From the NCBI GenBank assembly GCA_046497275.1, contig JAWOFX010000035.1, forward strand, positions 5,751-37,750: a stretch of DNA of 32,000 nucleotides, read 5' to 3'. Position 1 is the first letter of the stretch. Every line of letters begins with the position of its first letter. Made by a program: the position numbers and the translations under genes. The notes under the pieces are model-generated. The model did no database searches. It had not been told where the DNA came from and was given only the letters and a program-made list of their open reading frames with translations. Positions 24,678 to 32,000 of this stretch are shown one piece after another. The DNA comes from Promethearchaeia archaeon (lineage in GTDB: Archaea > Asgardarchaeota > Lokiarchaeia > Sigyniarchaeales > SOKP01).

Positions 24678-24895
24678 TTTCTCGATTTCTTTAAATTATC
24701 TTATGAAATTATATTAAATCATAACTATAAATTTTATTACTCTAAACATAGAATTAAACAGAGATATAAAAGTTATTATAAGCTTTTTTAAAATTTAATA
24801 AAAATAATATAAATAAAATTAATATTATCCGAATTGATTACCTGATTTAAGATAATGATGAGAACTAATTTAGGAGAAAAATACAGAAATAAAAT

Positions 24896-24904
24896 AAAAA
24901 AAAA
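24896..24904 (-). terminator. Oligo-T tract downstream of the large beta-helix gene
   Basis: A9 on the + strand (T9 on the - strand) 11 nt after the stop codon at 24916. Confidence 0.45.
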
Positions 24905-24915
24905 TGAATAGTTAA

Positions 24916-27900
24916 TTAGGTTGATCTTCTTTTTTTTGTTATTTGAATCATGAGATAGACTCCTAAAATGCCTGTTATTATCAATAGTAAGAAAATATCA
25001 AATCCAGGTATTCCTGATGATGGTGAAACCGGTTCTGACTCTACTGTGACCTCAATTGTAGCTGAACAGAAATTATCATGAGGATCATATGCTCTAATCT
25101 CAATCGAGTAAGTTCCTGAAGAAAGTGTTCCCACGTTTGTGATGACTCCATTAACATCAATCTGAAAATTTGTCGTATCATTGATCCAATAGTGGTCGAT
25201 GCCTGCAAGATCGGACGCGTTTACCTCATAGTTAAAGGGAATACCAAACTCTATTATTTGATTAGAGGGACTTTCCAACCAATTAGGGATGGTCGTATCT
25301 TCCACCGTGATGTTAATAATACTACTTGTGATCAGCCCTATCGTATCATTAACGTGAATCTCAAGCCAATATACCTGCACTGTTAGTAATGAGCAATTTG
25401 TAATCAATCCGTTACTATTGATTTGAAAATTACTTGTATCATTGACCCAATATGCATCAATTCCAGAAGCGTCCCAGGCACTCACATCACAACTTAAAGA
25501 ATCTCCATATTCAAGATTTTGGTCTTCAAGGATATAAACCCAATCGGGCGGTGTTGTATCTTGAATCGTAATTTTAATCACGGTAGAATTTAAATTTCCA
25601 AGAGTATCATTCACGCTGATTTTTAGCCAATATACACCAACAGGAATCTCTATAAGATGTGTAATTAGTCCATTATCATCAATTTGAAAGTATGTGCTCT
25701 CGTTTATCCAGTATGAATCAATACCCGAAAGATCCAACGCGTTCACGTCGTACGCAAAGTTCGTACCAAATTCGTCTACTTGATCCATTGGGAGGGGATC
25801 CCAGCTTGGAGGCGAGGCTGGTTCGATGGTAATTTTAATGGTAGTTGAGAGGATATTACCGTATGTATCATTGACTGATACTTCAAGCCAGTATTCTCCC
25901 GCAAATAGAGTCGTGATATTAGTTATTATGCCAGCTAAATCAATCTGGAAATTACTTGTATCATTAATCCAATATGCATTAATTCCCGAGGTATCAGAAG
26001 CATTTATGTCATATAAAAATGTGATTCCAAATTCTAAAGTCTGGTTGGTTGGCATTTGATCCCAGGTTGGAGGATGATTCTCTCCAGGTCCATCATCCCA
26101 AATCGGATATCTATCTTGACTTCCCGCACTCCCAGTAATATTGTAGGGTATATCTCCGATTCCATCATCGTCGAGATCTACGCCTGAATACATTTCCCAG
26201 TAGTCACTCCAATAATTTCCTATTGTTCCATTATCCCATTGATTATTAAAGCCATTATCAAGAGCTTGAACAGTATTATCGATAAGATCGTTCATGAAAA
26301 TCGAAGTATCATTTGTTTGATATAAATAAATAGCAGTTGAAGAGTTAAAAACAGTATTTTCTGTTATTACATTATTTGGACCTGAATGTTCAAAGAAAAT
26401 TCCAACATTTACATTCGAAGAAATCACATTCTCCGATATTGTGTTATTTTTCGAGGAATAGAATCTAATTCCATATGAATTCGCGGAGCAGTTATTATTC
26501 AAAATTGTATTATTAGATGAGTAATAGCCTTGTATCCCAACCCAACCGTTTAAATAGCAATCATTATCGAAGATCATGGTATTGTTAGACGATACTAACA
26601 AAATTCCATTATGAACATTAAATGATAATTGATTCTTGGAAATCTTGTTATCAATTGAAGAATCTGAGTAAATTCCATCTGAATTCGAGAGAAGTATGTT
26701 TTTCAGAATTTTATTATTATTAGCTGCATTTCTTAAATAAATCCCACGATTATTGGAAGAGCAGTTATTACTCGTAATGTTATTAGCACTGGATTGATAT
26801 AAGTAAATCCCATTTTCTTGATTCATAGAGCAATAATTCAGCAAAACAGTATTATTGTTGCTTAAGGTATCTAATCCAATTCCGCCCCACTCGTTTAAGT
26901 TACAGTTATTTCCTGAAATCGTATTATTTTTACATGAATAATATATATTAATTCCATCATTTTTGTTAAAGGAGCAGTTGTTTTCTGAAATTATATTATT
27001 ATTGCTTGAATAATATAAGCGAATACCGTTATTTTCATTCAGAAAGCAGTGGTTCCTGTTAATTGTATTGTTTTTTGAAGTAACCAAGTAAATTCCACTA
27101 TAATTATTTAAGAAACAGTTATTTTCTGAAATAGTGTTATTTGAAGAATATAAGTAAATCCCATAAAGGTTCGAGGAGCAATTATTCTCTAAAACTAAGT
27201 TCTCATTTGAGGAATGTAATATAATTCCGTGCCACTCGTTTAAGTTACAGTTATTTCCCGAAAGGGTATTATTATCGCTAGAGGCATCTAGTCTAATTCC
27301 ATCGGCTAAATTCAAGGAGCAGTTATTTCCTAAAACCGTGATGTTATTTGATGAGGATACGTAAATTCCACGATAATTTGAGTATAATATATTCCAAGCA
27401 AGCGTGTTTTTGCTAGAAGAGATCAAATGAATTCCATAGTACCCATTTAATGAGCAAAGATTATCTGAAATCATGTCATTATTCGAGGAATCTATATTGA
27501 TACCATCATTTTCATTAGAAGAACAGTTGTTCCCTGAAACAGTATTATCATTGCTCGAAGATTCCAAATGAATCCCATAATCATCATTCGAATTGCAGTT
27601 ATTTCCTGATATCTGGTTATCATCAGAAGCTAATAAACGGATTCCAGAACGGCCGTTTGAATTGCAGTTGTTATCCAAAATTTCATTATGATCACAATTA
27701 CCACCATATAATTCAATCCCAAAAATTGAGTTATCGGAGCAATTATTACGCACTATTTTGTTGTAACTACTTGTTTGACATAAACGAATTCCGCTATATC
27801 CATTAGATGAGCAGTTATTATCGAATATATCGTTATCTTCACTCCACCGCAAGTCAATTCCAAACCAATTATTCAAGAAGCAGTCATTTTCCGAGATTTC

Positions 27901-30579
27901 AGTATCGTATGAATAAAGTAATTCAATCCCCCTATCATTTGAGAAAAGTTTGTTTCGTGATATTTTCCCATATTCAGTATGGCTTAGATGAATACCCCAT
28001 CCATTCGTAGCGTTGAAGAGAGTACAATTTTCAATTAAGAAATATTCTGAAGATCGCTTAATATCAATACAATAAGTTGATCCCATTCCGTCTATCGTTA
28101 AATTAGCGATTACATAAGGATCATTTTGAGTTCCACTGCCAGTACACCATGGCTGGTTTGCTGCCCAGGTCCAATTATGCGCTCCAACACCTGTGGCATC
28201 ACCATCGATGAATATCGGATTCAGTACATAAAAGAACCAGATCGGATAATTATCAATCCCGCCACCCGATCCACTTATTGAATACGGATCGTCACCAATT
28301 CCATCTAAATCAGTGTCAGAACCAGTGTAATCGTCCCAATAATTTCCAATAATGTCATTGTCCCAGTAATCATCAGAACCATCATCCCAAGCATTTTCAT
28401 CATTATCAATAAAATAGTTCCGGTAGAAAGTGTTATTATGTACATTGGTATCAACTATATTGACTCCATAGTGATATGATTGTCTAATCTCGTTGGAGCA
28501 GATCTCATTATAACGGCTATTGTCTATTAATCGAATCCCATCATAAGTAGTATTGTAAATAAAGTTATCATAGATTTCACAGAAAGCAGTAGTGTCTAAG
28601 CGGATCCCATGATTCCAAGAATGATGAATGGTATTTTGAGATATTATAGAATAATGACCATGTCGCAAGCTTATCCCTACTTGATTCCATTCAAAAGTAT
28701 TACTTAAGAGAGTTGTATGTTCCGTGGCATGGATTCGAATCCCTGCTGAAGAGCCTTGTACAATGTTATTTGTAAAGGTTCCATAATGACTTTGGAGCAG
28801 ATATACTCCAAAAACTCCCGTTGAGTTCGCTATCCAATTTTCCGTTATCATATTTTGAGGGCTATATCTCAAAGAAATCCCGGATCCATCGTTATTATGG
28901 ATAATATTTCCCTGAATTGTATTATTATAACAACTATCATAGAGAATTATACCAATATGACCGTTATCGGAACAATTATTCTCGAGGATGAGGGAATTAT
29001 TAACGTGATCGAAATGAATCGCCCCATGATAATTCAGAGGTGAGGCATTGTGTAAAGTAGAATTACGTATGACGAATGGTACGTTGGAATTTCGGATTTC
29101 TATGCAATTGTCAGTTCCTTGGCCATCAATGATCACATCCTTGATGACATAAGGATCATTCCACGTGCCGCTCCCATCACACCATGGCTGATATGAAGCC
29201 CAGGTCCAGTTATGCGCACCAACTCCCGTGGCATCGCCATCGATAAATATTGGCTTCAGGTTGTAAAAGAACCAAATGGGATAGTGATCAACTCCTCCCC
29301 CTGTTCCACTTACTGAATATGGATCGTCTCCAATGCCATCTAAATCTGTATCAGAACCAGTGTAATTGTCCCAGTAATTCCCTATAATACCATTATCCCA
29401 GACATTATTTATGCCATTATCACGGGCATGTATTTCATTATCTATAAAATAGTTCTGATAAAGTTTGTTATTATTGTTCGAAGATTCCAAATAAATTCCG
29501 AAATCATTGAAGTTTAAATCATTCTCGGAGATCTCGTTATTATTTGAGTAATAAAAGTATATTCCATAATCATTCAAACTTAAATTATTCTCCACGATAT
29601 TGCTATATTCAGTGGAATCCAAGAATATCCCAAAGTCATTCACTTCGCAAATGTTATCCGAGATCTCGTTATAAACTGAATTATGAATATAGATCCCATA
29701 ACGATTCATATAACAATGATTTTCCGAGATTTCACTATAATTCGAAGTGTAAAATAAAATTCCGACGACACCATTCGAGAAACAGGTATTTCTTAGAATA
29801 GTATTATTTGAAGTGTCCAAACGAATCCCATATTGACCATTCAAGCTACAAATATTGCCAGAAATCTCATTTTTATCGCTCATATCAGACAATTCAATGC
29901 CATAATAGAAGTTAGCGGAACAGTTATTACTCAAGATTTTGTTATATTTACTATAATAATCCACATAAATTCCACTATTCCCATTCGAGGAGCAATTATT
30001 TCTCAGAATATCGTTGCTCTCACTCAATACTAGTATCATTCCAAATACAGTATTCGAGAAGCAGTCATTCTCTATAATCTCGTTGTTCGATGATTCAATT
30101 AACCTAATTCCATTGTAATTCGAGAAAATTCTATTCTTGAATATTTTTCCATTTTGAGTATTGGTTAAATCAATGCCCCATGCATTCGTGGCATTGAAAA
30201 GGGTGCAATTTCTAATTACAAAAAATGCATTAGAATCTTTTATTTTAATACAAATATTTGTCCCCATTCCATCTATCGTTAAATTGGCAATTACATACGG
30301 ATCATTTTGAGTTCCACTGCCAGTACACCAAGGTTGACTCGCAGCCCATGACCAGTTATGAGCCCCGGGACCTGTCGCATCCCCATCAATGGCAATTGGT
30401 GTCATTGAATTATTAAAATATGCTCCATGTAACTCTCGGTGGTCTTGGTTTCCATCTTTTTCGCTTATATTATCAACTTTTATTAATGGAAACATGTTTA
30501 GAAACGTAGCACTTAAAAGCAGGGAGAATCCTAAGAGAAAAATAATCTTTCTTTTAATTTTTGTCTTAAAACTTTTCAT
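24916..30579 (-). CDS. Large secreted/cell-surface protein: signal peptide, three NosD/CASH-like right-handed beta-helix modules, four Ig-like repeats, Loki-CTERM-like anchor
   Basis: N-terminal basic + hydrophobic signal. Three modules start PIxIDGDATGxGAHNW and end GNYW..D.D.DGIGD.PY..YPIW, with many GI.L..S.NN.I..N.C..N coils. Four ~88-aa repeats follow, then the tail GIPGFDIFLLLIITGILGVYLMIQITKKRRST. Confidence 0.9.
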   Translation of the reverse strand: MKSFKTKIKRKIIFLLGFSLLLSATFLNMFPLIKVDNISEKDGNQDHRELHGAYFNNSMTPIAIDGDATGPGAHNWSWAASQPWCTGSGTQNDPYVIANLTIDGMGTNICIKIKDSNAFFVIRNCTLFNATNAWGIDLTNTQNGKIFKNRIFSNYNGIRLIESSNNEIIENDCFSNTVFGMILVLSESNDILRNNCSSNGNSGIYVDYYSKYNKILSNNCSANFYYGIELSDMSDKNEISGNICSLNGQYGIRLDTSNNTILRNTCFSNGVVGILFYTSNYSEISENHCYMNRYGIYIHNSVYNEISDNICEVNDFGIFLDSTEYSNIVENNLSLNDYGIYFYYSNNNEISENDLNFNDFGIYLESSNNNNKLYQNYFIDNEIHARDNGINNVWDNGIIGNYWDNYTGSDTDLDGIGDDPYSVSGTGGGVDHYPIWFFYNLKPIFIDGDATGVGAHNWTWASYQPWCDGSGTWNDPYVIKDVIIDGQGTDNCIEIRNSNVPFVIRNSTLHNASPLNYHGAIHFDHVNNSLILENNCSDNGHIGIILYDSCYNNTIQGNIIHNNDGSGISLRYSPQNMITENWIANSTGVFGVYLLQSHYGTFTNNIVQGSSAGIRIHATEHTTLLSNTFEWNQVGISLRHGHYSIISQNTIHHSWNHGIRLDTTAFCEIYDNFIYNTTYDGIRLIDNSRYNEICSNEIRQSYHYGVNIVDTNVHNNTFYRNYFIDNDENAWDDGSDDYWDNDIIGNYWDDYTGSDTDLDGIGDDPYSISGSGGGIDNYPIWFFYVLNPIFIDGDATGVGAHNWTWAANQPWCTGSGTQNDPYVIANLTIDGMGSTYCIDIKRSSEYFLIENCTLFNATNGWGIHLSHTEYGKISRNKLFSNDRGIELLYSYDTEISENDCFLNNWFGIDLRWSEDNDIFDNNCSSNGYSGIRLCQTSSYNKIVRNNCSDNSIFGIELYGGNCDHNEILDNNCNSNGRSGIRLLASDDNQISGNNCNSNDDYGIHLESSSNDNTVSGNNCSSNENDGINIDSSNNDMISDNLCSLNGYYGIHLISSSKNTLAWNILYSNYRGIYVSSSNNITVLGNNCSLNLADGIRLDASSDNNTLSGNNCNLNEWHGIILHSSNENLVLENNCSSNLYGIYLYSSNNTISENNCFLNNYSGIYLVTSKNNTINRNHCFLNENNGIRLYYSSNNNIISENNCSFNKNDGINIYYSCKNNTISGNNCNLNEWGGIGLDTLSNNNTVLLNYCSMNQENGIYLYQSSANNITSNNCSSNNRGIYLRNAANNNKILKNILLSNSDGIYSDSSIDNKISKNQLSFNVHNGILLVSSNNTMIFDNDCYLNGWVGIQGYYSSNNTILNNNCSANSYGIRFYSSKNNTISENVISSNVNVGIFFEHSGPNNVITENTVFNSSTAIYLYQTNDTSIFMNDLIDNTVQALDNGFNNQWDNGTIGNYWSDYWEMYSGVDLDDDGIGDIPYNITGSAGSQDRYPIWDDGPGENHPPTWDQMPTNQTLEFGITFLYDINASDTSGINAYWINDTSNFQIDLAGIITNITTLFAGEYWLEVSVNDTYGNILSTTIKITIEPASPPSWDPLPMDQVDEFGTNFAYDVNALDLSGIDSYWINESTYFQIDDNGLITHLIEIPVGVYWLKISVNDTLGNLNSTVIKITIQDTTPPDWVYILEDQNLEYGDSLSCDVSAWDASGIDAYWVNDTSNFQINSNGLITNCSLLTVQVYWLEIHVNDTIGLITSSIINITVEDTTIPNWLESPSNQIIEFGIPFNYEVNASDLAGIDHYWINDTTNFQIDVNGVITNVGTLSSGTYSIEIRAYDPHDNFCSATIEVTVESEPVSPSSGIPGFDIFLLLIITGILGVYLMIQITKKRRST
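25045..26075 (-). repeat. Four tandem ~88-aa Ig-like (cadherin-like) domain repeats within the large surface protein (boundaries approximate)
   Basis: Consensus PPxW..xQ.lE(F/Y)G..YDVNAxDxSGIdxYW(I/V)NDTxxFQIxxxGxIT..G.YWLxIxVNDTxG, seen four times in the translation. Confidence 0.8.
26095..30405 (-). repeat. Three homologous beta-helix modules (about 29270-30405, 28230-29260, 26095-28225)
   Basis: Repeated cap sequences. Modules 1 and 3 share the identical 30-nt stretch atcattttgagttccactgccagtacacca (near 30301 and 28120). Confidence 0.85.
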
Positions 30580-30659
30580 ATAATTTTATCAACTCATTTT
30601 TTTATTAGATTTCTAAATTTCTAAAAAAAACCATTGAATATTGACTATGATTCAGTTCT

Positions 30660-30688
30660 ATATATATGCGTCCTTATGAAAGTTTCAT
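30660..30688 (-). promoter_or_regulatory. Candidate TATA element (30660-30667) with adjacent palindrome ATGAAA-G-TTTCAT (30676-30688), upstream of the large surface-protein gene
   Basis: A TA-alternating tract ~80 nt upstream of the ATG at 30579, and a perfect 6-bp inverted repeat just upstream of it. Confidence 0.3.
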
Positions 30689-30965
30689 GGAAGCTTGGAA
30701 TAAAAATGGAAGTTTTTTTTAAATATACTATCACCTTTTTTCAATTCCTTGGAAAAGTTATATATATTTGCAGAATCGAATAGAATATCCAGTCTTCATT
30801 TTTTAATTATTTCAATCAGTTTTTATGTCCACCCTCTTTTTTGATTTATAAAAACACTTACAATAAAAAAATAAAGTTATATTGGTAATTCAAGATATAA
30901 CTTATAATAAGAGATTAATTTATTACTTTAAGAGTGAGTTTTTGACTTAATGACTGATTTACAAA

Positions 30966-31021
30966 ATTATGAGGGCTATATCTCAAAGAATATTCTGAGG
31001 GCTGTATCTCAAAGAAATTAT
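30966..31021. repeat. Intergenic imperfect 26-bp tandem repeat (TGAGGGCT[A/G]TATCTCAAAGAA) that matches coding sequence inside both flanking beta-helix genes
   Basis: Cores at 30970-30990 and 30996-31016. The first is identical to 28856-28876; the 16-nt core of the second (30996-31011) is identical to 31799-31814. Confidence 0.9.
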
Positions 31022-31033
31022 AAAAAAAAAAAA
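31022..31033 (-). terminator. T12 tract, likely terminator of the 31054..>32000 gene
   Basis: A12 on the + strand, 20 nt downstream of the stop codon at 31054. Confidence 0.55.
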
Positions 31034-31053
31034 TTGAAATTATAATATGAAAC

Positions 31054-32000
31054 TTATGAATTTCTTCTTTTGATGGGATAACCCATTCCTATAATACCAA
31101 CAAGAGAAATGCTGAGAATGACGATTAAATTGTATCCTGGGATAACTCCTCCATTCACAGAAATATCATCACCATCATCCCAAATAGGGTAATTATCTTG
31201 AGCACCTGAGCTACCAGCAATATTATAAGGAATATCCCCAATTCCATCATCGTTGAGATCCACACCTGTATAGTCATCCCAATAATTACCAATGCTTCCG
31301 TTGTCCCAATAATTATCGGTTCCATTATCAACAGCATTTACATCATTATCGATGAAATAATTCATATAAAGCGTATTATTATTGACATTTGCGTCATACA
31401 TATATGCACCATAGCGAAATGATTTTTCAATTTCATTGCTATAGATTTCATTGTCGTGACTATTATCTATTAGGCGGATCCCATCATATGTGGTATTGTA
31501 AATGAAATTGTCAGAGATTTCACAGAAGGCGGTGGTATCTGAAAATATTCCATACTTCGAAGAAGAGTAAATCCTATTTTGAGTAATTATCGAATAATGC
31601 CCATGTCGCAAACTTATCCCGACTTGATTCAATTCAAACGTATTATTATATACTGTTATATGTTCTGTAGCATGGACTCGAATTCCTGCTGAAGAACCAA
31701 GTACCGTGTTATTTGAAAAGGTTGCATAATGGCTTTGGAGCAGATATACTCCAAAAGCTCCCGTTGAATTCGCTATCCAATTATCAATTATTGTATTATG
31801 AGGGCTGTATCTCAGTGAAATCCCAGCATTTTGATTGTCATGCATGATATTTCTTTTTATGGTATTATTATTGCAATGTTCATACAAGATAATGCCGATG
31901 TGGCCATTATTGGAACAATTATTCTCTATAATGAGGGAATTATTGACATGATCCAAACGAATAGCGGCTTTATAATTCGCAGATGAGGCATCATATAATG
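31054..32000 (-). CDS. NosD/CASH-like beta-helix surface protein with Loki-CTERM-like anchor; 5'-truncated by the window edge; paralogue of module 2 of 24916..30579
   Basis: The frame is open to the window end (..LYDASSANYKAAIRLDHVNNSL..); the track's start is an internal TTG. It is closely similar to module 2 (DHVNNSLIxENNCSxNGHIGIILY, WIANSTGxFGVYLLQSHY, QVGISLRHGHYSII). Tail: VIPGYNLIVILSISLVGIIGMGYPIKRRNS. Confidence 0.9.
   Translation of the reverse strand, partial: LYDASSANYKAAIRLDHVNNSLIIENNCSNNGHIGIILYEHCNNNTIKRNIMHDNQNAGISLRYSPHNTIIDNWIANSTGAFGVYLLQSHYATFSNNTVLGSSAGIRVHATEHITVYNNTFELNQVGISLRHGHYSIITQNRIYSSSKYGIFSDTTAFCEISDNFIYNTTYDGIRLIDNSHDNEIYSNEIEKSFRYGAYMYDANVNNNTLYMNYFIDNDVNAVDNGTDNYWDNGSIGNYWDDYTGVDLNDDGIGDIPYNIAGSSGAQDNYPIWDDGDDISVNGGVIPGYNLIVILSISLVGIIGMGYPIKRRNS

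Follow-up and report, generated by a model that had tools for sequence, protein, structure and literature searches.

A two-copy intergenic element as a probable rearrangement scar between beta-helix surface-protein genes of an Asgard archaeon

We analysed a stretch of 32,000 nucleotides (the window) from a Promethearchaeia archaeon that carries two neighbouring surface-protein genes, both on the − strand and separated by an intergenic region of 474 bp. The large gene (24916-30579) is an open reading frame for a protein of 1887 aa with three capped NosD/right-handed beta-helix modules, an Ig-like stalk and a Loki-CTERM-like tail; Pfam matches of this protein included NosD (5e-146) and Beta_helix (3e-122). 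The second gene (gene 2, 31054-32000, where it runs off the contig end) encodes about 440 aa, with a signal peptide, one beta-helix module and again a Loki-CTERM-like tail. NosD/Beta_helix reached 484 and 146 bits in the two flanking proteins (cut-off 23.6), and Loki-CTERM scored 18.6 bits (large protein) and 13 bits, below its curated cut-off of 19.9. The N-terminal part of gene 2 was found on another contig, C181: the end of the window's contig (C9) overlaps the reverse complement of the C181 end by exactly 191 nt, and the assembly L031 is contiguous across this join. When C9 and C181 are joined, gene 2 encodes 440 aa that include a signal peptide, a single module and an anchor. On the − strand between 26089 and 30579, every module of the large protein ends with the cap NYWD..DGIGD..YPIW, so that this C-cap motif forms three internal repeats, and the same cap precedes the anchor of gene 2. 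Judging by the shared cap, the 1887-aa protein looks like a head-to-tail fusion of single-module genes minus the anchor, the spacer and the signal peptide.

Within the intergenic region lie two short copies of a motif that also occurs inside both genes. Copy A (30966-30990) matched at 25/25 positions the M2-type genic motif that is kept in the metagenome contig L032 (position 7950), and its part 30970-30990 was identical to 28856-28876 in the large gene (21/21). Copy B (30990-31018) matched 28850-28878 at 27/29 positions and the M2-type genic motif at 22/23; it has the G variant as in gene 2 and the M2-type end AAAGAAAT, and its core (30996-31011) was identical to 31799-31814 in gene 2. In addition, 30966-30989 matched 31795-31818 at 21/24 positions. 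The two genic sites are thus the one in module 2 of the large gene (28850-28878, A variant, family D13), which codes on the − strand for ISLRYSPQN, and the one in gene 2 (31799-31814). The intergenic repeat has a period of 26 bp, all four sites are direct on the + strand, and the flanks of copies A and B had no further similarity. Direct reading confirmed the coordinates, the identities, the period, the orientation, the T12 run and the 474-bp length that a preliminary description of this DNA had given, as well as the − strand readings ISLRYSPQN and SLRYSPHN. The same description had pointed out that all mismatches among the sites are synonymous; these are variants already present in the paralogous genic templates and do not speak for selection on the intergenic copies.

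The 16-mer pattern TGAGGGCTRTATCTCA had four matches in the window, where 0.05 were expected, and none of 100 shuffles reached four. When the 3.85-Mb genome was scanned with up to one mismatch allowed, no site was found beyond these four at the locus, and 153 other genomes of the order yielded no exact match. A genome-wide repeat or a MITE is thus ruled out. Nor did we see a genome habit of copying coding 20-mers into nearby non-coding DNA: we counted 14 such pairs, spread over about 9 loci, and several lie within longer duplicated stretches. The element had also been called palindromic. The symmetry TGAG..CTCA is indeed there, but its arms are only 4 bp long and on neither strand did the element fold better than its shuffles (z = +0.72 and −0.83). 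As the element had no match in Rfam either, a structured RNA or a known RNA family is ruled out.

The window ends at a repeat-induced contig break 800 nt away, and the preliminary description had listed an assembly artefact among its options. However, the independent NCBI assembly L028 contains both copies unchanged, while over 18 kb it has 20 substitutions and one indel relative to the window; near the element it deviates only in the length of the run at 31022 (A11 instead of A12) and in one substitution at 30892. Both copies are also included in a 1106-nt contig from DNA run X1 that spans 30403-31509, and a 304-nt contig from the RNA library X4, which comes from another study, spans 30954-31257 with 0 differences. 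The independent assembly and the contigs from other runs rule out an artefact, which we regard as practically impossible. In DNA run X2 the depth of the intergenic contig was far below that of the genes, and the paralogous AT-rich region of C181 was equally low, which we read as library bias rather than absence. Look-ups via neighbouring proteins recovered only one further assembly of the locus. As the two strains that carry the element differ by only 0.1%, conservation between them is uninformative either way.

We then compared the two sides of the element with related loci. The region upstream of the large gene (30580-30949), which still has the divergent promoter region of a small Zn-ribbon gene, is paralogous to the stretch in front of gene 2 on C181, and its orthologue in L032 is the single intergenic stretch of that locus. 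Its identity to C181 was 88-91% at both ends, with the middle replaced (76% overall), and its identity to L032 was 82.5-87.6% up to position 30972. The paralogy continues into the small gene, 30582-30972 corresponding to the upstream region plus the start of this gene on C181; the earlier statement that the intergenic region has no other gene homology was wrong. By direct reading and in-register comparison, 30950-30972 on the + strand is a relic of the first 6-7 codons of the small gene (MTDLQN..). Its ATG is at 30950, and the homology ends at 30972 after about 6 codons, where the frame enters copy A; the frame crosses the element as a 31-aa ORF (30950-31045) whose terminal KKKK comes from the A12 run. 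Identical-protein look-ups of this ORF and of the 1887-aa protein returned no match. In C181, L032 and L063, the intact small gene could be aligned with both the relic ATG and the promoter-proximal 70 nt. The intact gene lies beyond gene 2 and is divergently transcribed (L030:8557-8967, − strand). It encodes a protein of 136 aa that has a CxxC..CxxC Zn-ribbon as well as a coiled coil and is about 47-54% identical across >70 Promethearchaeota loci, for which no Pfam family is on record and all NCBIfam matches were far below the cut-offs. As to the replaced middles of the two paralogous upstream regions, they are unrelated to each other (window 30700-30863 versus C181 18750-18553, 164 versus 198 nt), and the version in the window is the one common to L032.

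On the other side of the element, the 3′ flank of the gene-2 cassette (31019-31053, − strand) contains a T12 run on the − strand (31022-31033) that is likely an archaeal oligo-T terminator. It is here that homology to the 3′ flank of the single gene of L032 begins: L032 5813-6149 matched 31019-31357 at 86.5% identity and L032 5817-6301 matched 31022-31509. The left homology block thus ends at 30972 and the right one starts at 31019-31022, and the gap between them holds both copies and nothing else. In other words, the element is the 46-56 nt between a block made of the upstream region and the start of the small gene and a block made of the 3′ flank and gene 2. Because the copies fill exactly this gap, and because the relic ATG with its promoter-proximal 70 nt matches the intact small gene, we consider it fairly probable that the element is a neutral rearrangement scar, left by illegitimate recombination and free of a dedicated function, formed as templated filler or by short-patch conversion, in a hypervariable, module-shuffling surface-protein island. 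The confinement of the motif to this locus, its absence from the searched genomes of the order and the lack of an Rfam match and of a significant fold all agree with such a scar.

Related loci differ in what stands between the UbiA-like gene and the small gene. In L032, a metagenome contig of a sister lineage about 94% identical in the conserved flanks, this is a single 1260-aa three-module beta-helix gene, with the same 3′ flank and upstream region as in the window and without the element; the only exact copy of the motif there is the genic one in module 2. In L063, from a related species (about 74% identity), the UbiA-like gene is directly beside the small gene, with neither a beta-helix gene nor the element. 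L031 has a different multi-module beta-helix gene, this genome has two beta-helix genes, and beta-helix neighbours were present at only 2/72 small-gene loci (L031 and L032). The states of L063 and L032 and the small number of loci with beta-helix neighbours indicate that the island is young and variable, and they also argue for a scar. The beta-helix cluster of roughly 8 kb (24740-32000 plus C181, joined to about 32740) is a lineage-specific, strain-variable island. The more distant tandem beta-helix loci L104 and L105 had no motif-like element.

Two direct repeats 26 bp apart could also be sites of a protein-binding operator, repeated intergenically and inside both genes, as the preliminary description had proposed. 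Apart from this arrangement, nothing spoke in favour of the proposal. The intergenic sites are about 390 nt upstream of the large-gene start and downstream of the gene-2 terminator, they are not conserved in relatives, and the neighbourhood has no conspicuous regulator gene; as for the genic copies, they are plain coding sequence of a conserved coil. An operator is therefore very improbable.

The edges of the two copies are sharp. The paralogues around the filler are only 72-82% alike, so that short copies matching at 25/25 and 22/23 positions point to recent copying rather than to decayed gene remnants, as expected of a scar. The 26-nt units of copies A and B differ at 4 positions, 3 of which are within a 5-nt spacer, and the cores of both are still identical to their genic templates. 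Two separate templated copies fit this pattern better than an old 26-bp tandem duplication followed by drift, which is thus disfavoured. Moreover, both borders appear to have microhomology, which again suggests a scar. At the left border, codons 7-13 of the intact small gene matched copy A in register at 13/23 positions (p about 0.009), with the perfect blocks ATGA and CTCAAA (ATGA / ATA.CTCAAA). At the right border, the flank of L032, itself a 79-87% proxy, has AAAGAAATCC 7 nt before the A-run, which matches the motif end AAAGAAAT(CC).

The element is, however, on the cassette side of the junction, and L032 shows a faint resemblance to it (TATCT..AAAGAAAT) equally far from the A-run. This could mean that the element was already present in the 3′ flank of the donor cassette, as a decayed coding relic or a 3′-UTR feature, and was imported together with gene 2. 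Local alignment did not find the element in the L032 3′ flank, a 79-87% proxy for the donor flank, at a significant level (p 0.09-0.13, about 0.1 for the resemblance). In addition, a decayed relic would not retain 25/25 identity with sharp edges amid no similarity, and the left edge of the element overlaps the small-gene relic via microhomology. We thus find prior presence in the donor flank quite unlikely.

Gene 2 itself is a mosaic. Its tract 31672-31809 is of the M2 type (90-95% like module 2 of L032, 72-83% like L031) and ends inside the genic motif. To the right of the motif, gene 2 is 100% like L031 and 63-68% like the M2 type. Compared with the L031 allele, gene 2 has 63 differences, all within 31209-31809; the sequence from 31810 to 43188 is free of them. 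The interval of the crossover, TCTCA.. (31810-31817), is within the genic motif and is the only identity island there between the two module types. The same position is a fork for C181, for the second assembly and for the Logan contigs: C181 begins at the equivalent of 31810 and the Logan contigs of X1 and X2 at 31810 itself, and the L028 contig ends 55 nt past it. In all, contig ends of three assemblies meet at this fork. The depth of 31810-32000 was roughly double that of the flanks, and letters of the L031 type were present at about half depth in both DNA runs. The contigs break at 31810 because the gene-2 motif sits on the crossover of the alleles. The two co-occurring alleles that fork there are 100% identical rightward for at least 11.4 kb and diverged leftward. 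The L031 allele is without the motif (it reads ISLRESSEHN) and runs on into further modules instead of the anchor; the module order thus varies among L031, L032 and this genome. As judged from the sequences, the beta-helix island is recombination-active, and the mosaic gene 2 and the varied module order are a further argument for the neutral scar.

Three junction-type events, namely the two intergenic copies and the gene-2 crossover at 31810-31817, fall on the same motif, module order varies between strains, and the four sites are direct and in frame. These features would be compatible with a sequence-preferred recombination hotspot for in-frame module shuffling, the intergenic copies being by-products or spare sites, but we hold this to be decidedly unlikely. 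The gene-2 crossover is in the sole identity island of modules that are 63-68% alike, so that ordinary homology-guided resolution suffices, and neither the L031 allele nor other paralogues in the genome contain the motif. The symmetry extends over only 4 bp, the Pfam lists of the called neighbouring genes contain no recombinase family, and the joint between 28856 and 31799 was not seen. In the contigs of four runs, which drop rare variants, we found no joints at 28856, 30970, 30996 or 31799. One joint of low depth, 28612->31594 (side 27, with 38 extra letters), looks like a further paralogue rather than a recombinant. The preliminary description had suggested recombination sites or scars for module shuffling; the scar is upheld by the rearrangement junction and the crossover in gene 2, whereas dedicated shuffling sites lack support, with no recombinase family in these Pfam lists, no real dyad symmetry and no 28856/31799 joint in the contigs. 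The element differs in the first two respects also from known site-specific recombination sites, i.e. those of invertase/shufflon systems and integron attC.

If the element is a neutral scar, its origin could be as follows. The strain-variable NosD-like beta-helix island is bordered by the UbiA-like gene on one side and by the conserved small Zn-ribbon gene on the other. A second cassette, consisting of a 3′ flank with the oligo-T terminator, gene 2, an upstream region and an intact small gene, would have joined into the start of the resident small gene, which was cut after about 6 codons. The gap of 46-56 nt would have been filled by two short stretches (25 and 23-29 nt), whose probable source is the best-conserved coil of a beta-helix module of the M2 type (..GISLRYSP..). 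Microhomology may have primed the copying, through ATGA / ATA.CTCAAA towards the small gene and through AAAGAAAT towards the flank, and the process may have been template switching in repair or replication, or short-patch gene conversion. The breakpoints, the identities, the absence of the element from the searched relatives and its presence in two assemblies are direct observations; we infer both the molecular process of joining and the neutrality of the scar from its final product. Several points speak against this origin. The element could predate the junction in the donor 3′ flank, as L032 is only a 79-87% proxy and no pre-junction allele of the cassette was recovered. Templating twice from 0.8-2.1 kb away would be unusual for simple end joining, and the source of the G variant of copy B is not present as such in the genome. 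Furthermore, an RNA-library contig spans the element, which could therefore be transcribed and might have gained a role.

Templated insertions occur at microhomology junctions, as in MMEJ by polymerase theta in eukaryotes and in FoSTeS/MMBIR template switching. The element resembles such filler in that stretches identical to nearby sequence stand at a novel junction, with apparent microhomology at the borders and serial templates. It differs in that the archaeal host is not known to have polymerase theta, the templates would be 0.8-2.1 kb away or in an unsampled allele, and the process is deduced from the product. Another comparable process is homology-facilitated illegitimate recombination, which takes place during the uptake of foreign DNA in bacteria. 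Here the small gene and everything rightward of it are 100% identical to L031 and would anchor one end, while the other end would be at microhomology inside the resident gene, duplicating the anchor region. Unequal crossing-over between diverged alleles would yield the same product at this locus, and to our knowledge homology-facilitated illegitimate recombination has not been demonstrated in Asgard archaea. Finally, Neisseria pilE/pilS and Borrelia vlsE are systems in which surface proteins vary by gene conversion. The locus shares with them mosaic surface-protein genes, short conversion tracts from paralogous or allelic cassettes and strain-variable modules; in contrast to them, it has no silent cassette arrays and no known initiating element, and the copies are far too short as donors.

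We also considered whether the scar could be in use. The promoter-proximal region of the relic and that of the intact small gene share about 91% identity, so a + strand antisense RNA, another option of the preliminary description, could be transcribed from the relic promoter, starting near 30930-30950 and carrying copies A and B. Such a transcript would continue antisense into the 3′ end of gene 2, and its pairing would lower both surface proteins, e.g. via cleavage of double-stranded RNA. In agreement with this, the X4 contig (30954-31257) begins 4 nt past the relic ATG and extends across the T12/A12 run, with 30600-30953 uncovered there, and part of the stretch is present in several salt-lake RNA runs. 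The complementarity is perfect over 21-25 nt to the large-gene mRNA, with a 16-nt core (23/26) to gene 2, and the genome encodes, about 3.3 kb before the window, an RNase III domain (G000:C9:2065-2400) that scored above the cut-off at 62 bits. However, contigs carry no strand, the RNA runs were chosen for holding the stretch, and DNA carry-over or read-through of the gene-2 mRNA would explain the X4 contig equally well. Copy B has 3 mismatches to the present gene-2 site, two of them adjacent, and the element is confined to one species, forms no stable structure and matched no Rfam family. That the scar gave rise to an antisense RNA is therefore unlikely, although less so than the other alternatives weighed here. 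It is a little more doubtful still that the relic promoter transcribes A and B as target mimics of 21-25 nt, which would make the scar a de novo antisense regulator with a one-step origin. Like the antisense small RNAs of archaea, the + strand is complementary over 21-25 nt to two mRNAs and stands behind a plausible promoter; unlike them, it lacks conservation and structure.

If the neutral-scar reading is true, the element does nothing, yet it is a cleanly resolved record of how Asgard surface-protein genes are built and reshuffled. This record would include the insertion of a cassette at microhomology, short templated copies, mosaic conversion tracts and strain alleles that break assemblies. 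Such junctions would be a sequence-level hint on the DNA-repair routes of an uncultured lineage. For annotators, the contig ends at this locus are biological forks. A wider interest would arise only under the minority reading of an antisense RNA from the scar.

A minor difference between the two assemblies concerns the homopolymer at 31022-31033, which is A12 in the window and A11 in the second assembly. This may reflect an oligo-T terminator run of variable length or possibly a sequencing ambiguity.
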